From assembly GCA_030612025.1 (NCBI GenBank), contig JAUWOR010000001.1:151790-175789 (forward strand): a stretch of 24,000 bases of DNA, in the 5' to 3' direction. The position numbers and the translations under genes were made by a program. This document shows, one piece after another, positions 12,416 through 18,002 of the stretch. Every line of letters begins with the position of its first letter. Within the stretch, counting starts at the first letter, position 1. This DNA is from Dehalococcoidia bacterium. GTDB lineage: Bacteria > Chloroflexota > Dehalococcoidia > GIF9 > AB-539-J10. The notes below the pieces were generated by a model, which saw only the letters and a program-made list of their open reading frames with translations, was not told the DNA's origin and did not search any database.

Positions 12416-13765
12416 TCAAGGTTGAAGCTCTTTGACCATATAAGCGATTTCTAATCTATAGCCAAGTGAGCGAAAGTAATCTCTACTTCCAACGCCACTC
12501 AAAACACTCAGCTTCCCAGCAAGGAATTCCTCCCGAGCAATTCTCTCTGCTTCTCGAAGCAACTTTTCCCCTAAACCCCTGTGCTGAGCAGCCCGCTCTC
12601 GCTTTTCCCCTAAGGGGACCTCAGAACCAAAGACATGTAGCTCCCTGATTAAAGCTGAGCCAATATTGATCCTGAGCCTTAATAAGCCAAATAAGGTCTC
12701 ATTGGCATCCTCGTAGGAAAGAAAAATTTCCTTCCCTCCGTAAGTTTCATAGTCCATCCTGAATAGCCAAGGCTCGCCAATCATCCAGCCATCCCTTAAC
12801 CTATGCCCATATTCCCGACAGCGAATACAGCGACAATGAAGGCCCAACTCGCTCATCCGCTTCCTGACGCTCCCCCGCAACGCCAGGTCTCTGCTGCCAG
12901 CAATGATAAATTTGCTGGGGATATCCCGCATCAGCCTGGGTATTCTGACATATTTGGGAATCAGGGTTTTGATATTCACCAGTAAATCTATCATCTCCCC
13001 ATCCTCATAAGGCTGGTATTTGTTATCTCGATACCATTCCTCTAGCTCACTTCCTACAACCACCAGCGTAGGGTAAAGCTTGAGCCCATCGGGTCGGAAA
13101 TATTCATCAGCGAATAATTTCCGTGATAGCTCCAGGTCATGCTCCGGCGTCGAGCCAGGCAGACCAGGCATCCAATGATAGTAGACCTTAAAGCCATAAT
13201 CCCTCAGTAACCTGGTGGCAGAGATGACCTCAGCTACTCCATGCCCTCTCTTCGTTAAACGGTGAATGTCATCATCCAGCGTCTGTACCCCAAGCTCCAC
13301 CCTGGTAGTGCCAAAATCAAGCATACTCTTTATCTCCACCTCTCCACACCAATCAGGCCTGGTCTCAATACATAATCCCACACAGCGACGCTCAGCAGTT
13401 TCATTCATTTTCTTGGCTTCCTCTAAGTTAGCCGAAGGAACACCATTGAGAGCATCATAGCAGTCCTTAACAAATTGATATTGATACTCACAAGGGTAAG
13501 CTAGAAAGGTGCCTCCCATGATGATGAGCTCTATTTTATCCACTGGATGTCCCATATCAGCCAATGTCCTGAGCCGGAACTCCACTTGCCTTTTGGCATC
13601 AAAGTTACATTTCCTGGCGCGAAGAACCGCCGGAGATTCTATGGTGTAGCTCTTTGGTGCTTCAGGAGAGCTGGGGCAATAAACGCATTTGCCAGGGCAG
13701 GGGAATGGCTTGGCCATAACCGCCACCGGTGTTACCCCGGAAATAGTGCGCGATATTTTCTTCAT
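12416..13765 (-). CDS. elp3: Elp3-type radical SAM / GNAT tRNA U34 carboxymethyl-modification enzyme (short bacterial form)
   Basis: 449 aa. It has a radical-SAM cluster region (...PFPCPGKCVYCPS...), a TIM-barrel core and a C-terminal GNAT with QHRGLGEKLLREAERIA. The size and N-terminus match the compact bacterial Elp3 known from Dehalococcoides (from memory). Confidence 0.9.
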   Translation of the reverse strand: MKKISRTISGVTPVAVMAKPFPCPGKCVYCPSSPEAPKSYTIESPAVLRARKCNFDAKRQVEFRLRTLADMGHPVDKIELIIMGGTFLAYPCEYQYQFVKDCYDALNGVPSANLEEAKKMNETAERRCVGLCIETRPDWCGEVEIKSMLDFGTTRVELGVQTLDDDIHRLTKRGHGVAEVISATRLLRDYGFKVYYHWMPGLPGSTPEHDLELSRKLFADEYFRPDGLKLYPTLVVVGSELEEWYRDNKYQPYEDGEMIDLLVNIKTLIPKYVRIPRLMRDIPSKFIIAGSRDLALRGSVRKRMSELGLHCRCIRCREYGHRLRDGWMIGEPWLFRMDYETYGGKEIFLSYEDANETLFGLLRLRINIGSALIRELHVFGSEVPLGEKRERAAQHRGLGEKLLREAERIAREEFLAGKLSVLSGVGSRDYFRSLGYRLEIAYMVKELQP

Positions 13766-13795
13766 GCTACACTAAAGTTTAGCAGAGCTTATTCT

Positions 13796-14446
13796 ATGAC
13801 CACAAATAGAGAAGTATTCGACCAAATAGCTGAAAGCTGGTATCGGGTAAGACACTGGCCCCGGTTAAGGAAAGAGCTGGAAGAACTAGCCCAAAGGTGG
13901 CAAAGGGGGGAATTGCTTAATGTTGGCTGCGCCCACGGTCCCGACTTCCTGTCTTTCACACAGGGCTTCGGACTGTGGGGGATAGATTTCTCTTCACAAA
14001 TGCTCAAGCAAGCACAGAGATATTCACTTAAATTCAATTTTTATGTCAACCTAATAGCAGCTGATATGCTTTCGCTACCCTTCCCTGACAACACCTTCGA
14101 CTGGGCAATCGCAGTGGCCGCTTATCACCACATAAAGGGCAAGAACAACAGAGAAAAGGCATTTTGTGAATTAAAACGGGTGCTAAAACCGGGAGGCGAA
14201 GCTTTCCTGACCGTATGGAACCGGGGGCAGCCAAGGTTCTGGCTAAAATCCAAAGAGCAAGAAGTTCCCTGGAGGCTAAGAGGTAAAACCGTTTACCGCT
14301 ATTACCACCTCTTCTCCTATGGCGAGTTAAAAAAACTACTCACCCAGGTTGGCTTTGAAATTATCACCATCTCTCCCGAGAGATCCTACCACTTCCCCAT
14401 AAAGAACTTCTCCCGCAATATATGCATCCTGCTAAAGAAATCCTAA
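13796..14446 (+). CDS. Class I SAM-dependent methyltransferase, Trm9/ALKBH8-like
   Basis: I chose the start at ATG 13796; the track's 13547 start runs antisense through elp3. Motif I is LLNVGCAHG. Other matches are ...LPFPDNTFDWAIAVAAYHH... and the C-terminal block VYRYYHLFSYGELKKLL, which parallels yeast Trm9 (...FDFAISIAVVHH..., ...YRYYHLYREGEL...) as I recall it. Confidence 0.75.
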   Translation: MTTNREVFDQIAESWYRVRHWPRLRKELEELAQRWQRGELLNVGCAHGPDFLSFTQGFGLWGIDFSSQMLKQAQRYSLKFNFYVNLIAADMLSLPFPDNTFDWAIAVAAYHHIKGKNNREKAFCELKRVLKPGGEAFLTVWNRGQPRFWLKSKEQEVPWRLRGKTVYRYYHLFSYGELKKLLTQVGFEIITISPERSYHFPIKNFSRNICILLKKS

Positions 14447-14535: not shown

Positions 14536-14907
14536 TCATTTTCTTCCTTTCAGAGTTAGTATGCTAGTGGCGAGTATATTAGCAATCTCTGTGGCCTCTT
14601 TTAGAAGTTTATTAACGGTGTCTTTGTCACCTCTGTCGGAATCTCTGAGCAGTCCTAACCAGAACTTGCATTCATTTGCCGACTTCAGTGCATAAGCGAA
14701 GAAGTTGGTATAATCCTTCCTTGAAGAGGCTGCCTGAGCCTCGATTACATTAGCACCAATACTGGTAGTGCTTCGTAAAAGCTGGTCACTGATGATCCTC
14801 GAGGTTTGCTCCACTGACAGCTTATCCACAAATCCGATTACATCCAGTGCAAATTTATAGACACGTCTCTTGAATTCATTTTTAAATTTTGCCTTGTCAT
14901 TTTGCAT
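14536..14907 (-). CDS. Four-helix-bundle protein (23S rRNA intervening-sequence protein / Avd-like family)
   Basis: 123 aa. ...YKFALDVIGFVDKL...QLLRSTTSIGANVIEAQAASSRKDYTNFFAYALKSANECKFWLGLL... is the family signature. Confidence 0.85.
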   Translation of the reverse strand: MQNDKAKFKNEFKRRVYKFALDVIGFVDKLSVEQTSRIISDQLLRSTTSIGANVIEAQAASSRKDYTNFFAYALKSANECKFWLGLLRDSDRGDKDTVNKLLKEATEIANILATSILTLKGRK

Positions 14908-14969: not shown

Positions 14970-17900
14970 TTACGGACTTGGTTGCTCACTGGATGGGTCT
15001 TGACCCACCTTCACCTTCTCAGGAAAGCCAGCTTCGACAAGGCCAATGAAAACCTCCACCAGCTGGGGGTCAAACTGCTTACCAGCGCCTTGCCTAAGCT
15101 GTTTTATCACTTTGTCATCGCAGAAGGCATCACGATAAGGGCGAGCAGAAGTCATGGCAGCGAAGGCGTCAGCTATAGCCAGAATGCGAGCATCCAAAGG
15201 AATAGTCTCGCCTTTAAGCCCCTCAGGATAGCCAGTGCCATCCCACCTCTCATGGTGGTATAAAATGGCAGGCAAACAAGAAACTAAACTAGGCACATTA
15301 CCAACAATGTTGGCCCCAAATTTGGGATGAGACTTAATTGCTTCCCAGTCCTCAGTAGTAAGCTTCCCCTTTTTGTTCAGTACCTTATCAGGAATACCAA
15401 TCTTACCAATATCATGAAGCAAAGCAGCCGTGCTTACTCTAGACACCTCGTCAGGTGACAAGCCGATCGCCTCAGCCAAAGCCACAGCATAAGTGTTAAC
15501 TTTCCTGGAATGACCATAAGTATAATGGTCTCTAGCATCCACTGCTGAGACCAAGGCATAGACAGCGCTTAAGCCACCTCCTCTGGCATTAGCCCCTGCC
15601 TCGATTGGTGGCTCAGACAAAATTTTAGCCGAGAGATAAGTTCGATTGCCGCCGGTGCGCTTGGCATAATAAAGAGCAGTATCACTTGCAGTGATCAACT
15701 CACCGGACATCACTCCATCAGAAGGATAGCTAGCCAAACCAATGCTGCAAGTTATGGCGACTTCCTTAGCTTTCATTTCGCTGGCAATCTGCTCCCGAAC
15801 TCTTTCAGCTACCACGTAAGCATCTTCGCTAATTGTCTGAGGCAAAATGACGATAAACTCATCACCACCATACCGGAAAGCCTGGTCAGCATTCCTGATA
15901 GAGCTCTTGATGATACTACCTATTTGGTCCAGAAGCTCATCGCCAGCAGGGTGTCCATATATATCGTTGTAGGTCTTAAAGCCATCGAGGTCGAGCATGA
16001 GCAAGGAGAATATATTACCGTAGCGGGAATGTCGGGCAATTTCTTCTTTAAGCCGCTCTTCAAAATGGCGACGGTTAAATAGCCCGGTGAGCTCATCAAT
16101 GCGAGCCCTCTGCTCCGCCCTAGCATAGAGCTGGGAGTTCTCAATGGGTGTAGCAATCTGCAAAGCCAAGTGCTCCAGAAGTCGTATTTGCTCGGTATTA
16201 TAGGCAGCAGCTCGGCGACTGGCCACAATCAAGCTGCCGATACCCCCACCCCGGACAACCAGGGGCAGGTAAACAATAGAGCGAACTCCCCGTCTCAGAT
16301 GATGCTCTCCAGTCCAGAATCTTTTATGTCGTGCCAGATTAGCTTCATATAAGCTCCTCTTCTCCTTAGCCACCCACTCAGTAGCTGTGCCCTCAAGTGG
16401 TATCCTCTCCCCTACTTTCCACGCTGAACCGATAGTGCTAGATAGAGCTAAGAAACGAAGCTCAACTCCTTCAATCAAAGCAATTGTGCCCCAGTCAACA
16501 TCAACTACCTCCTTTAGCGCTTGAGCAAAACCTTCAAATATCTCCTCGATGTTCATACTCGAGGTTATAATTGTAGTTAAACGATTGACGAGGGTTAATT
16601 CTTTGTCCTGCTGTTCCAATTGCTCATGGAGATATTCTTTTTCCATACTGGCGGCCACCTGGCCAGCAATGGACTCCATTAAATCAAGCTCTTCAAGGCG
16701 ATAAAGCTTTCCATTTCGCTTGTTGCCCACCGCCAAAATAGCCACAAGCTCACCCCTATTTATTAAAGGAACGAGCATTTGTACTTTTGCCGATTGAATA
16801 TCTTCTTTTTCCTCTTGCCACAAACCTTGAAATTCGGGGAGGATGCTGAGGTTCCTTTCAGGTAGTGTTTGAGCCTCCCGCTTCAGCCAGGCCACAATAG
16901 GGCTATCATGCCTCACTTTCAACTTCGCTACAGGATTATCTTCCACAGGAGGATAGCTAAATCGGGGAGCAAAATCTCCACTCTCAGTTTGGGGTAAAAG
17001 CAAACAGGCTCGGTGACAATCAATCGATTGAGAGAGTAAGGACACAAGCTGGCTGCCAAACTGTTCCAGAGTGGGAACACTGTGTATTTTGGCGATAAAG
17101 TCATGTAATCTGTGCCGGGGCTCAATTCTCTCACCGTAGAAGACTCGATCCACTCTCCCAAAAATTTTGTTACGCACCCGATACCAAAAAGGGGCTGCTA
17201 TAGCTCCTGTGCATAACATGGCAATAATAATAGTAGGAAAGCCGAGCTCAAAGCCAAACGCTTTTAGGAGCAAGAGAAGCCCGGCAAAAAAGGTAACTAC
17301 GAGTAAGGCAGCCATGCCGCTGAAACTCAACGCCTCACGGAGAACAACTCTGACATCGAGCAACTTATGCCTTACCACAGCATAGGTCAAGATACCAGCA
17401 TTGAGTAAATTGCCAACATGGGCAAAAGGATACCCCCTTCCAAAAGGAAAGAAAGTGCTCGAGGTAAAAGTAATCAAAATAGCAACACCCATGAATAAAT
17501 AAACAATTTGGTTGCGCTCTGCTGGGTCAGCTAAAACCCTGTGCCGGCGAGCTAAAGAATATATGTCTCTGCCACCCAAGGCGAAGATGCCGGAAACTAT
17601 GAGAATATACCAACTACCATACTGAACATTGATGCCGCTAGCAGTAATATCCATACCCTGTGGGATATAGCCCAGCGCTGCCAACACAATCATGCTTACT
17701 ACCAAAACGTAGGCCAAGGGTATTTTGATGTGCTGACGCCGATAAAAAGAACATAAAAAGTAATGATATTGAACCCCCATCCAGATGCCAAAGCAGATGC
17801 CAACTTTAGTCAGAAGGAGCCTATGCGGCACAAGAAAGCCGCTGCGGAAGAAAAAGCCGCTAAGGCTCCACAGCACGGCAGGAATCAGCAATAGAAGGAA

Positions 17901-18002
17901 AAACTTTTGTTTTCTACCCCAGGGGCGGTTGCTTAACAAAACGACAAACAGGGGGATATAAGCAATGGTGGCAATTAAAGGGATTAAAGCCTGAATATTC
18001 AT
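14970..18002 (-). CDS. Membrane-anchored c-di-GMP turnover protein: N-terminal 7TM sensor region, GAF domains, GGDEF diguanylate cyclase, HD-GYP phosphodiesterase
   Basis: 1010 aa. The first ~280 aa carry about 7-8 TM spans. The central region is GAF-like. The GGDEF domain has an intact active site (RYGGDEFIVIL) and an RxxD I-site (RNAD). The HD-GYP domain is intact (LLHDIGKIGIP..., YHHERWDGTGYPEGL). Confidence 0.9.
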   Translation of the reverse strand: MNIQALIPLIATIAYIPLFVVLLSNRPWGRKQKFFLLLLIPAVLWSLSGFFFRSGFLVPHRLLLTKVGICFGIWMGVQYHYFLCSFYRRQHIKIPLAYVLVVSMIVLAALGYIPQGMDITASGINVQYGSWYILIVSGIFALGGRDIYSLARRHRVLADPAERNQIVYLFMGVAILITFTSSTFFPFGRGYPFAHVGNLLNAGILTYAVVRHKLLDVRVVLREALSFSGMAALLVVTFFAGLLLLLKAFGFELGFPTIIIAMLCTGAIAAPFWYRVRNKIFGRVDRVFYGERIEPRHRLHDFIAKIHSVPTLEQFGSQLVSLLSQSIDCHRACLLLPQTESGDFAPRFSYPPVEDNPVAKLKVRHDSPIVAWLKREAQTLPERNLSILPEFQGLWQEEKEDIQSAKVQMLVPLINRGELVAILAVGNKRNGKLYRLEELDLMESIAGQVAASMEKEYLHEQLEQQDKELTLVNRLTTIITSSMNIEEIFEGFAQALKEVVDVDWGTIALIEGVELRFLALSSTIGSAWKVGERIPLEGTATEWVAKEKRSLYEANLARHKRFWTGEHHLRRGVRSIVYLPLVVRGGGIGSLIVASRRAAAYNTEQIRLLEHLALQIATPIENSQLYARAEQRARIDELTGLFNRRHFEERLKEEIARHSRYGNIFSLLMLDLDGFKTYNDIYGHPAGDELLDQIGSIIKSSIRNADQAFRYGGDEFIVILPQTISEDAYVVAERVREQIASEMKAKEVAITCSIGLASYPSDGVMSGELITASDTALYYAKRTGGNRTYLSAKILSEPPIEAGANARGGGLSAVYALVSAVDARDHYTYGHSRKVNTYAVALAEAIGLSPDEVSRVSTAALLHDIGKIGIPDKVLNKKGKLTTEDWEAIKSHPKFGANIVGNVPSLVSCLPAILYHHERWDGTGYPEGLKGETIPLDARILAIADAFAAMTSARPYRDAFCDDKVIKQLRQGAGKQFDPQLVEVFIGLVEAGFPEKVKVGQDPSSEQPSP

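Follow-up and report, generated by a model that had tools for sequence, protein, structure and literature searches.

The subject of this report is a divergent gene pair within a stretch of 24,000 nucleotides (nt) from an uncultured Dehalococcoidales bacterium (assembly GCA_030612025.1, 95.6% complete; contig JAUWOR010000001.1, positions 151,790 to 175,789), which we refer to throughout as the window. One gene encodes a bacterial Elp3 and the other a methyltransferase (MT) resembling Trm9, and our results favor the view that together they form a tRNA wobble-uridine modification module of the kind found in eukaryotes and archaea. In window coordinates, the pair and the gap between its members are:

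12416-13765, minus strand: Elp3, 449 amino acids (aa), with a short N-terminus as in the Elp3 of Dehalococcoides mccartyi (DmcElp3); identified from TIGR01211, PDB 5l7j and motifs

13766-13795, no strand: divergent intergenic region of 30 nt with overlapping promoter-like elements for both genes; from the sequence and 57 related loci

13796-14446, plus strand: Trm9-like class I S-adenosylmethionine (SAM) methyltransferase, 216 aa, predicted to methylate the carboxyl group of 5-carboxymethyluridine at wobble position 34 (cm5U34), giving the 5-methoxycarbonylmethyl derivative (mcm5U34)

An initial annotation, made from the sequence, described the two genes as head-to-head with start codons 30 nt apart, and this is exactly the spacing that we find. 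Both MT motifs quoted there are likewise present, FDWAIAVAAYHH at residues 101-112 and VYRYYHLFSYGEL at residues 166-178. The plus-strand open frame of the MT spans 13547-14446, and a start at 13547 was considered and rejected because homologues, whose open frames encode about 220-230 aa, begin at the aligned ATG and have nothing to match the extension. The start adopted here, ATG 13796, is common to 28 homologues, with M1 nearly invariant in their alignment.

The minus-strand product scores 575 bits against NCBIfam TIGR01211 (cut-off 350; residues 2-447) and 640 bits against DmcElp3 (PDB 5l7j; residues 1-447). Since the alignment to DmcElp3 starts at residue 1, the basic N-terminal extension is missing from the window protein, as it is from DmcElp3. 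Pfam reports Radical_SAM and Radical_SAM_C domains together with a weak match to Acetyltransf_1. The radical-SAM CxxxCxxC cysteines (C23/C27/C30), a second Cys cluster (C311/C313/C316) and the acetyl-CoA motif QHxGxG (Q394-H395-G397-G399) are all invariant in an alignment of 11 sequences (A3).

For the MT, the initial annotation had proposed a resemblance to Trm9/ALKBH8 from its motifs, and profile and structure searches uphold it over a UbiE or otherwise generic placement. With the single sequence as query, the best match among solved structures is Trm9 of Yarrowia lipolytica (5cm2_Z, E value 1.7e-13, residues 17-193), and a profile of 29 MT orthologues again ranks 5cm2_Z first (E 1.4e-21). 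This alignment extends through the Trm9-specific C-terminal half (VPW, RYYHLF..GEL), whereas the other top matches cover the Rossmann core only. Letoquart et al. (PMC4678810) reported that mutations of R29, D72, H116, W145, W168, R241, Y243 and N271 abolish or strongly lower the function of yeast Trm9 (ScTrm9). HMMER alignments pair D72, H116, W145, W168, R241 and Y243 with D64, H112, W141, W159, R168 and Y170 of the MT, while motif and position assign R29 to R19 and N271 to N208; phmmer pairs R17 with ScTrm9 R29, while the invariant Arg is R19, which aligns to the FSxTR motif of a related family. All eight essential residues are either invariant or conserved to 90% or more across the 29 orthologues, all from Dehalococcoidia, in which the motif I glycines G44 and G48 and the acidic D64 at the end of strand 2 are invariant. 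Further correspondences link H111 to ScTrm9 H115 and Q145 to ScTrm9 Q149. An AlphaFold2 model of the MT (predicted local distance difference test, pLDDT, 92; predicted template modelling score, pTM, 0.90) was compared with the PDB by Foldseek, and Trm9 came second among the roughly 1,500 class I methyltransferases that matched significantly; it had the lowest root-mean-square deviation (2.9 Å) and a target-normalised TM-score of 0.80.

An assignment of the MT to UbiE/MenG was rejected, as its scores fall 4-10 times under the curated cut-offs: NCBIfam UbiE/MenG models give 33-43 bits against cut-offs of 158-420 (the best, 43 against 216), and Pfam Ubie_methyltran gives 33 bits over residues 58-136 only, that is, the shared Rossmann core. 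All Pfam and NCBIfam matches of the MT are to generic class I families, Methyltransf_11 scoring 70 bits. The Joint Genome Institute (JGI) pipeline names many homologues of 76-80% identity “tRNA (uracil-5-)-methyltransferase TRM9” and others “UbiE”. A representative search of 1.84 billion proteins, the results of which come without names, placed 188 clusters in the MT family at E up to 1e-30, and ten cluster look-ups returned only the labels “methyltransferase domain-containing protein” (Pacearchaeota) and “UbiE”. One metagenomic family member of 492 aa (P0272) is fused to a WecG/TagA-type glycosyltransferase domain, or has been mis-called as such a fusion, and other long matches bear unannotated extensions.

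The distribution of the two genes is strongly coupled. A phylum-wide sample comprised 401 genomes, 46 of them from the class Dehalococcoidia; Elp3 scored above cut-off in 70 of the 401, and the MT was searched at E up to 1e-18. Within the class, Elp3 is present in 29 of the 46 genomes; these same 29 have the MT, and the remaining genomes of the 401 gave no match to it. Of the 151 genomes in a second class sample, 24 contain Elp3 and 23 the MT, the sole case of Elp3 without MT being a fragmented assembly in which Elp3 lies near a contig end. Neither class sample includes a genome with the MT only. Divergent adjacency was seen in 35 of the 37 Elp3-bearing class genomes of both samples, with gaps of 16-290 nt where starts were called, and single-contig genomes of 1.4-1.5 Mb also contain the adjacent pair. 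Among the latter is the Dehalococcoides-type genome G096, whose Elp3 matches DmcElp3 over its full length with 977 bits and in which 43 nt separate the MT start from Elp3. A further scan, limited to one genome for each species, added 38 Dehalococcoidia loci, and the arrangement is the same in about 33 of the 36 that have enough flanking sequence. In one high-quality genome, G087, both genes are intact and the pair has been split by rearrangement, with Elp3 on contig C1 and the MT on C17 (loci L029 and L030).

The survey of adjacency that the initial annotation had called for thus shows the linkage to be kept in Dehalococcoidia and also in other Chloroflexota, bacteria of the Candidate Phyla Radiation (CPR) and DPANN archaea. 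In other Chloroflexota Elp3 is longer and about 40% identical, and its divergent neighbour is an MT of about 240 aa with 25-29% identity to that of the window. hhalign matches the two MT families with a probability of 99.6% (E 1.9e-23), including the C-terminal W...RY.H.FS..EL region. With a family-specific profile, the MT was found adjacent to Elp3 in 9 of 11 other-Chloroflexota loci and encoded in all five other-Chloroflexota genomes searched, four of which had given no tblastn match. A wider scan revealed a divergent MT of the same family upstream of Elp3 in 4 CPR bacteria and 9 DPANN archaea, and an MT on the same strand beside Elp3 in one Desulfurococcales locus (L115) and one unclassified archaeal locus; at Bathyarchaeota and Asgard Elp3 loci the scan found no MT within 4 kb. 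The active site varies across this wider family. Cys replaces the second His of the HH motif, the ScTrm9 H116 position, in the Elp3-adjacent MTs of eight loci from DPANN archaea and one unclassified archaeon (L082, L083, L085, L086, L102, L109, L110 and L113); in the other-Chloroflexota type, Gln occupies the N271 position and A, V or T the Y243 position.

Earlier work calls bacterial Elp3 rare and regards its product in vivo as unknown (PMC6367351, PMC7663514, PMC13315578). We found no mention of a Trm9-like neighbour in these three papers, a set that does not cover the 2016 structure paper (PMC5018218).

The pathway context fits a replacement of the usual bacterial route. No match to MnmG or MnmE rose above cut-off in the window genome, at its 95.6% completeness, and MnmA is present (350 bits). 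Across the 151 class genomes MnmG occurs in 52 and Elp3 in 24, and no genome has both. MnmG was also not found in any of five complete Elp3-bearing genomes of other Chloroflexota. The simplest reading, we infer, is that Elp3 and the Trm9-like MT replace MnmE/MnmG. Neither Elp3 nor MnmG was detected in 75 of the 151 class genomes, which include whole families of near-complete genomes (f6, 0/7; f13, 0/6; f21, 0/6). ARAGORN predicts 47 tRNAs in the window genome, among them the U34 species Gln-UUG, Glu-UUC, Arg-UCU, Gly-UCC and Leu-UAA. It detected tRNA-Lys(CUU) and no tRNA-Lys(UUU) in the assembly; the gene for the latter, a classic substrate for the 2-thiolated form mcm5s2U, may be unassembled or truly absent.

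Phylogenetic analysis separates the Dehalococcoidia pair from that of other Chloroflexota. In a tree of 49 Elp3 sequences, Dehalococcoidia are sister to DPANN with a Shimodaira-Hasegawa-like approximate likelihood ratio test (SH-aLRT) support of 97, inside an archaeal group, and the Elp3 proteins of other Chloroflexota and CPR form a separate clade. Monophyly of Chloroflexota Elp3 is rejected by the approximately unbiased (AU) test (p 9e-5), as is joint monophyly of the 27 Chloroflexota and CPR rows (p 0.006; one Krumholzibacteria row left out). The MT tree groups Dehalococcoidia with DPANN and Desulfurococcales (SH-aLRT 93), and monophyly of Chloroflexota MTs is rejected (p 0.007). Monophyly of the 24 bacterial MT rows (Chloroflexota and CPR) was, on the other hand, not rejected (p 0.21), which counts against a transfer of the MT and is the reason why lateral transfer is less firmly supported for the MT than for Elp3. 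The pair nevertheless appears to have been inherited as a unit, and since the Dehalococcoidia pair groups with the DPANN pair, and not with that of other Chloroflexota, lateral transfer of a cassette is suggested, the two genes probably having moved together. The trees are unrooted, and a direction from archaea to bacteria is indicated by the near-universal presence of Elp3 in archaea and its patchy presence in bacteria.

Archaea and eukaryotes build mcm5U at the tRNA wobble base with Elp3 and Trm9, and cm5U formation by archaeal Elp3 is established in vitro. We propose that the Elp3 of the pair would use radical SAM chemistry and acetyl-CoA to place a carboxymethyl group on C5 of U34, yielding cm5U, and that the MT, as a bacterial Trm9 orthologue, would methyl-esterify the carboxyl group of cm5U34 to mcm5U34. 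MnmA would then add the 2-thio group to give mcm5s2U. Because MnmA is present and MnmE/MnmG are missing, the U34 tRNAs for Gln and Glu are predicted to carry the eukaryote-type mcm5s2U instead of the bacterial 5-(carboxy)methylaminomethyl-2-thiouridine, (c)mnm5s2U. The suggestion in the initial annotation that a linked Elp3-Trm9 pair would amount to a complete wobble pathway of eukaryotic or archaeal type is thereby strengthened, as far as function can be predicted from the assignment of the MT, the co-occurrence and adjacency of the genes, and MnmA without MnmE/MnmG. We consider it likely that the MT functions as a cm5U34 methyltransferase in partnership with Elp3.

Several points nonetheless weigh against this interpretation. 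Neither Pfam nor NCBIfam includes a Trm9-specific model, and the only match that the MT can find there is to the generic Methyltransf_11. The similarity in fold, taken from a predicted model, is compatible with Trm9 but non-discriminating alone, as many class I methyltransferases score alike. The activity of DmcElp3 in vitro is weak, and a 2020 review states that there are no nucleoside data for these bacteria (PMC7663514). Finally, the characterised Trm9 enzymes of yeast (PMC4678810), human and Haloferax (PMC6144793, in vivo) need Trm112; no Trm112 gene is linked to the pair, and several pair-bearing genomes are without one.

The last point deserves closer attention. The initial annotation saw no Trm112-like partner, which holds for the window; elsewhere in the genome, on contig C5, there is a 61-aa open reading frame of the Trm112-like family PF03966 (47-49 bits), the only one in the genome. 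It is possible, if doubtful, that the MT acts only as a heterodimer with this protein, as Trm9 does in yeast, human and Haloferax, and that the module consists of three genes. The presence of such a protein in the window genome, the dependence of Trm9 on Trm112 in every characterised system and the occurrence of Trm112-like genes in 119 of the 151 class genomes are all in keeping with this view. However, the gene (L001:1468-1653, minus strand) is unlinked to the pair, and its nearest neighbour, about 750 nt away and divergent, is a different Methyltransf_11 gene (L001:2408-3139, plus strand, cut by the locus end), the product of which may be the real partner of the Trm112-like protein. Moreover, Trm112-like genes are distributed across the class regardless of Elp3, and five near-complete pair-bearing genomes (three Dehalococcoides-type, one g15 and one g17) yielded no Trm112-like gene standing on its own, even when E values up to 1 were admitted. 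Because of this independence from Elp3 and these absences, an obligate Trm9-Trm112 partnership is not supported by the phyletic patterns, unlike the situation for every characterised Trm9, and the MT probably works without an obligate Trm112 partner. On its other side, the Trm112-like gene is flanked by folate/pterin genes (HPPK, PTPS).

It could also be argued that the MT is coupled to Elp3 and yields a product other than the mcm5U methyl ester, with methylation at another base atom or tRNA position, or, as a variant of the same proposal, that the pathway ends at 5-carbamoylmethyluridine (ncm5U) or cm5U and the MT serves another step. Conserved linkage shows coupling and not chemistry, and the substitutions described above, namely Cys at the H116 position in many DPANN homologues and Gln and A/V/T at the N271 and Y243 positions in the other-Chloroflexota type, lend the argument some weight. 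The Dehalococcoidia MTs, by contrast, keep every essential Trm9 residue, including the H-H pair, as well as the R-Y-Y motif that has been proposed to hold the cm5U carboxylate (PMC4678810), and we regard a different product as improbable in either version. That the MT is an unrelated small-molecule or UbiE-type enzyme lying beside Elp3 by chance, as its purely generic Pfam matches, the name UbiE given by JGI to some homologues and the close Foldseek scores of many small-molecule methyltransferases might suggest, is very hard to reconcile with UbiE/MenG scores so far under the NCBIfam cut-offs, near-perfect phyletic co-occurrence, congruent Elp3 and MT gene trees, and adjacency that persists across domains and across Elp3 divergence down to 40% identity.

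If the mcm5U module is combined with the phylogenetic evidence, a wider scenario emerges to which we give an even chance of being correct in full. Dehalococcoidia would have acquired a DPANN-like Elp3-Trm9 cassette laterally, and this cassette would have displaced MnmE/MnmG, so that these bacteria would decode with eukaryote-type mcm5s2U34 made by a hybrid of an archaeal Elp3/Trm9 pair and a bacterial MnmA, free of Trm112. A second, independent cassette lineage would be represented in other Chloroflexota and CPR.

Regulation of the pair was approached through the 30-nt gap and the first codons of the MT, in which the following elements were distinguished:

13768-13773, plus strand: TACACT, a variant of a TATACT element located 1-2 nt from the Elp3 ATG

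13772-13782, no strand: palindrome CTAAAGTTTAG, overlapping the conserved -10-like motif

13776-13784, minus strand: TGCTAAACT, an extended -10-like motif facing Elp3 and ending 10 nt before the Elp3 ATG

13800-13806, minus strand: TTTGTGG, a -35-like block 18 nt upstream of the -10-like hexamer; TTtGT in aligned flanks

The extended -10-like motif is conserved. In the form TGnTA[ACG]AC, read in the sense of Elp3, it recurs in 46 of the 57 Elp3/MT gaps compared in Dehalococcoidia, with 48 occurrences against approximately 1.4 expected from background frequency, and the consensus of 45 full-length aligned flanks is AATCTGCTAAACT. In most loci 10-36 nt lie between the end of the hexamer and the Elp3 ATG, even where the gap measures hundreds of nt. 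A TTtGT block lies about 17-18 nt upstream of the -10-like element in the aligned flanks. The arrangement looks like an extended -10 promoter for Elp3 with its -35 region inside the first MT codons. TTTGTGG is the reverse complement of MT codons 2-4, and the conservation of TTtGT could equally reflect coding constraint on the N-terminus of the MT. As the hexamer ends 10 nt before the Elp3 ATG in the window, a very short leader is implied, and the Elp3 mRNA would be near-leaderless. In the sense of the MT, 26 of the 57 loci have a TAnAnT whose first base is no more than 9 nt from the Elp3 ATG, compared with an expectation of about 5%; the TATACT/TACACT element may be the -10 of the MT or part of the Elp3 5' untranslated region.

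These elements would give both genes a compact bidirectional control region, and because the promoter-like elements of Elp3 overlap the MT start, RNA polymerase would probably be unable to occupy both promoters at once, as judged from motifs. Caution is warranted here, since the promoter reading draws on comparative motifs only and a generic search of 13600-13950 for sigma-70 promoters and terminators gave no match. The initial annotation had inferred shared, overlapping or leaderless regulation from the narrow gap, its palindrome and the lack of a Shine-Dalgarno sequence for either gene. Inspection of the sequence agrees that no GGAGG-like Shine-Dalgarno motif lies within 15 nt of either ATG, and the palindrome is indeed found at the position listed. 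Overlap and a short Elp3 leader are suggested by the motifs, whereas the palindrome is not conserved and the extended -10-like motif is. A conserved operator at the palindrome was rejected, for relatives keep only the half that overlaps the TGnTAnAC motif. The palindrome alone is moreover weak evidence, because the 24-kb window holds 52 palindromes of the 5+5 type with a spacer of 0 or 1, and the chance of one falling in a given 30-nt gap is about 0.04-0.07. In some relatives (L002:1249-1538; L008, L043 and L056) the gap has been widened to 230-290 nt by insertions of GC-rich hairpin repeats resembling repetitive extragenic palindromic (REP) sequences or miniature inverted-repeat transposable elements (MITEs), and the conserved -10-like motif is kept on one side of these insertions.

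Just downstream of the MT, at 14536-14907 on the minus strand, the window encodes a 123-aa member of the 23S rRNA intervening-sequence protein family (PF05635, 73 bits). It is followed by a 1010-aa GAF-GGDEF-HD-GYP protein at 14970-18002.

The enzymes, the pathway and the clustering of the genes are already known from archaea and eukaryotes, and the name TRM9 is already in automated annotation; the clustering known in archaea in particular limits the surprise of the present findings. Their interest lies in the fact that DmcElp3 is among the principal structural and biochemical models for the Elongator catalytic core, and that the review literature treats the modification made by DmcElp3 in its own host as unknown and bacterial Elp3 as confined to one clade. 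A co-inherited Trm9 partner together with missing MnmE/MnmG leads to a testable prediction, namely that mcm5U and mcm5s2U occur in Dehalococcoidia tRNA. In addition, the pair could serve to reconstitute the entire mcm5U pathway from as few as two proteins, perhaps with no need for Trm112, either in vitro or in Escherichia coli. More generally, one universal decoding function would be supplied by two non-homologous, mutually excluding pathways within a single bacterial class.

The closest known counterpart of the minus-strand gene is DmcElp3 itself (PDB 5L7J, 5L7L and 6IA6), of which the window Elp3 is an orthologue with the same short N-terminus; it shares 63% identity with the Dehalococcoides-type Elp3 of locus L026. 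The MT resembles Trm9-Trm112 of fungi and ALKBH8-TRMT112 of animals in being a class I SAM methyltransferase with an N-terminal helix bearing a conserved Arg, in its HH, W...Q, VPW and RYYH(L/V)F..GEL motifs and C-terminal Asn, and in a predicted role downstream of Elp3. It differs from the fungal and animal enzymes in being only 216 aa long and insertion-free, in lying head to head with Elp3 and in having no evident obligate Trm112 partner, and its activity is a prediction.

Among prokaryotes, Grosjean et al. (2008; PMC2584109) noted clustering of the Elp3 and Trm9 genes in Sulfolobus solfataricus, and van Tran et al. (2018; PMC6144793) showed that HvoTrm9 (HVO_1032) of Haloferax volcanii makes mcm5U together with Trm112. 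Both organisms have a stand-alone prokaryotic Elp3 and a Trm9 orthologue, as in the window, and in Sulfolobus the genes are clustered as well. The window pair is set apart from these by its bacterial host, by divergent instead of co-directional genes, and by a thiolation step that is predicted to depend on MnmA and not on Ncs6/Tuc1. With the canonical bacterial xm5s2U34 pathway of MnmE/MnmG and MnmA, the pair would share the tRNA position and the wobble-restricting role in split codon boxes; the chemistry and the enzymes are entirely different, and only MnmA is retained in the window genome.

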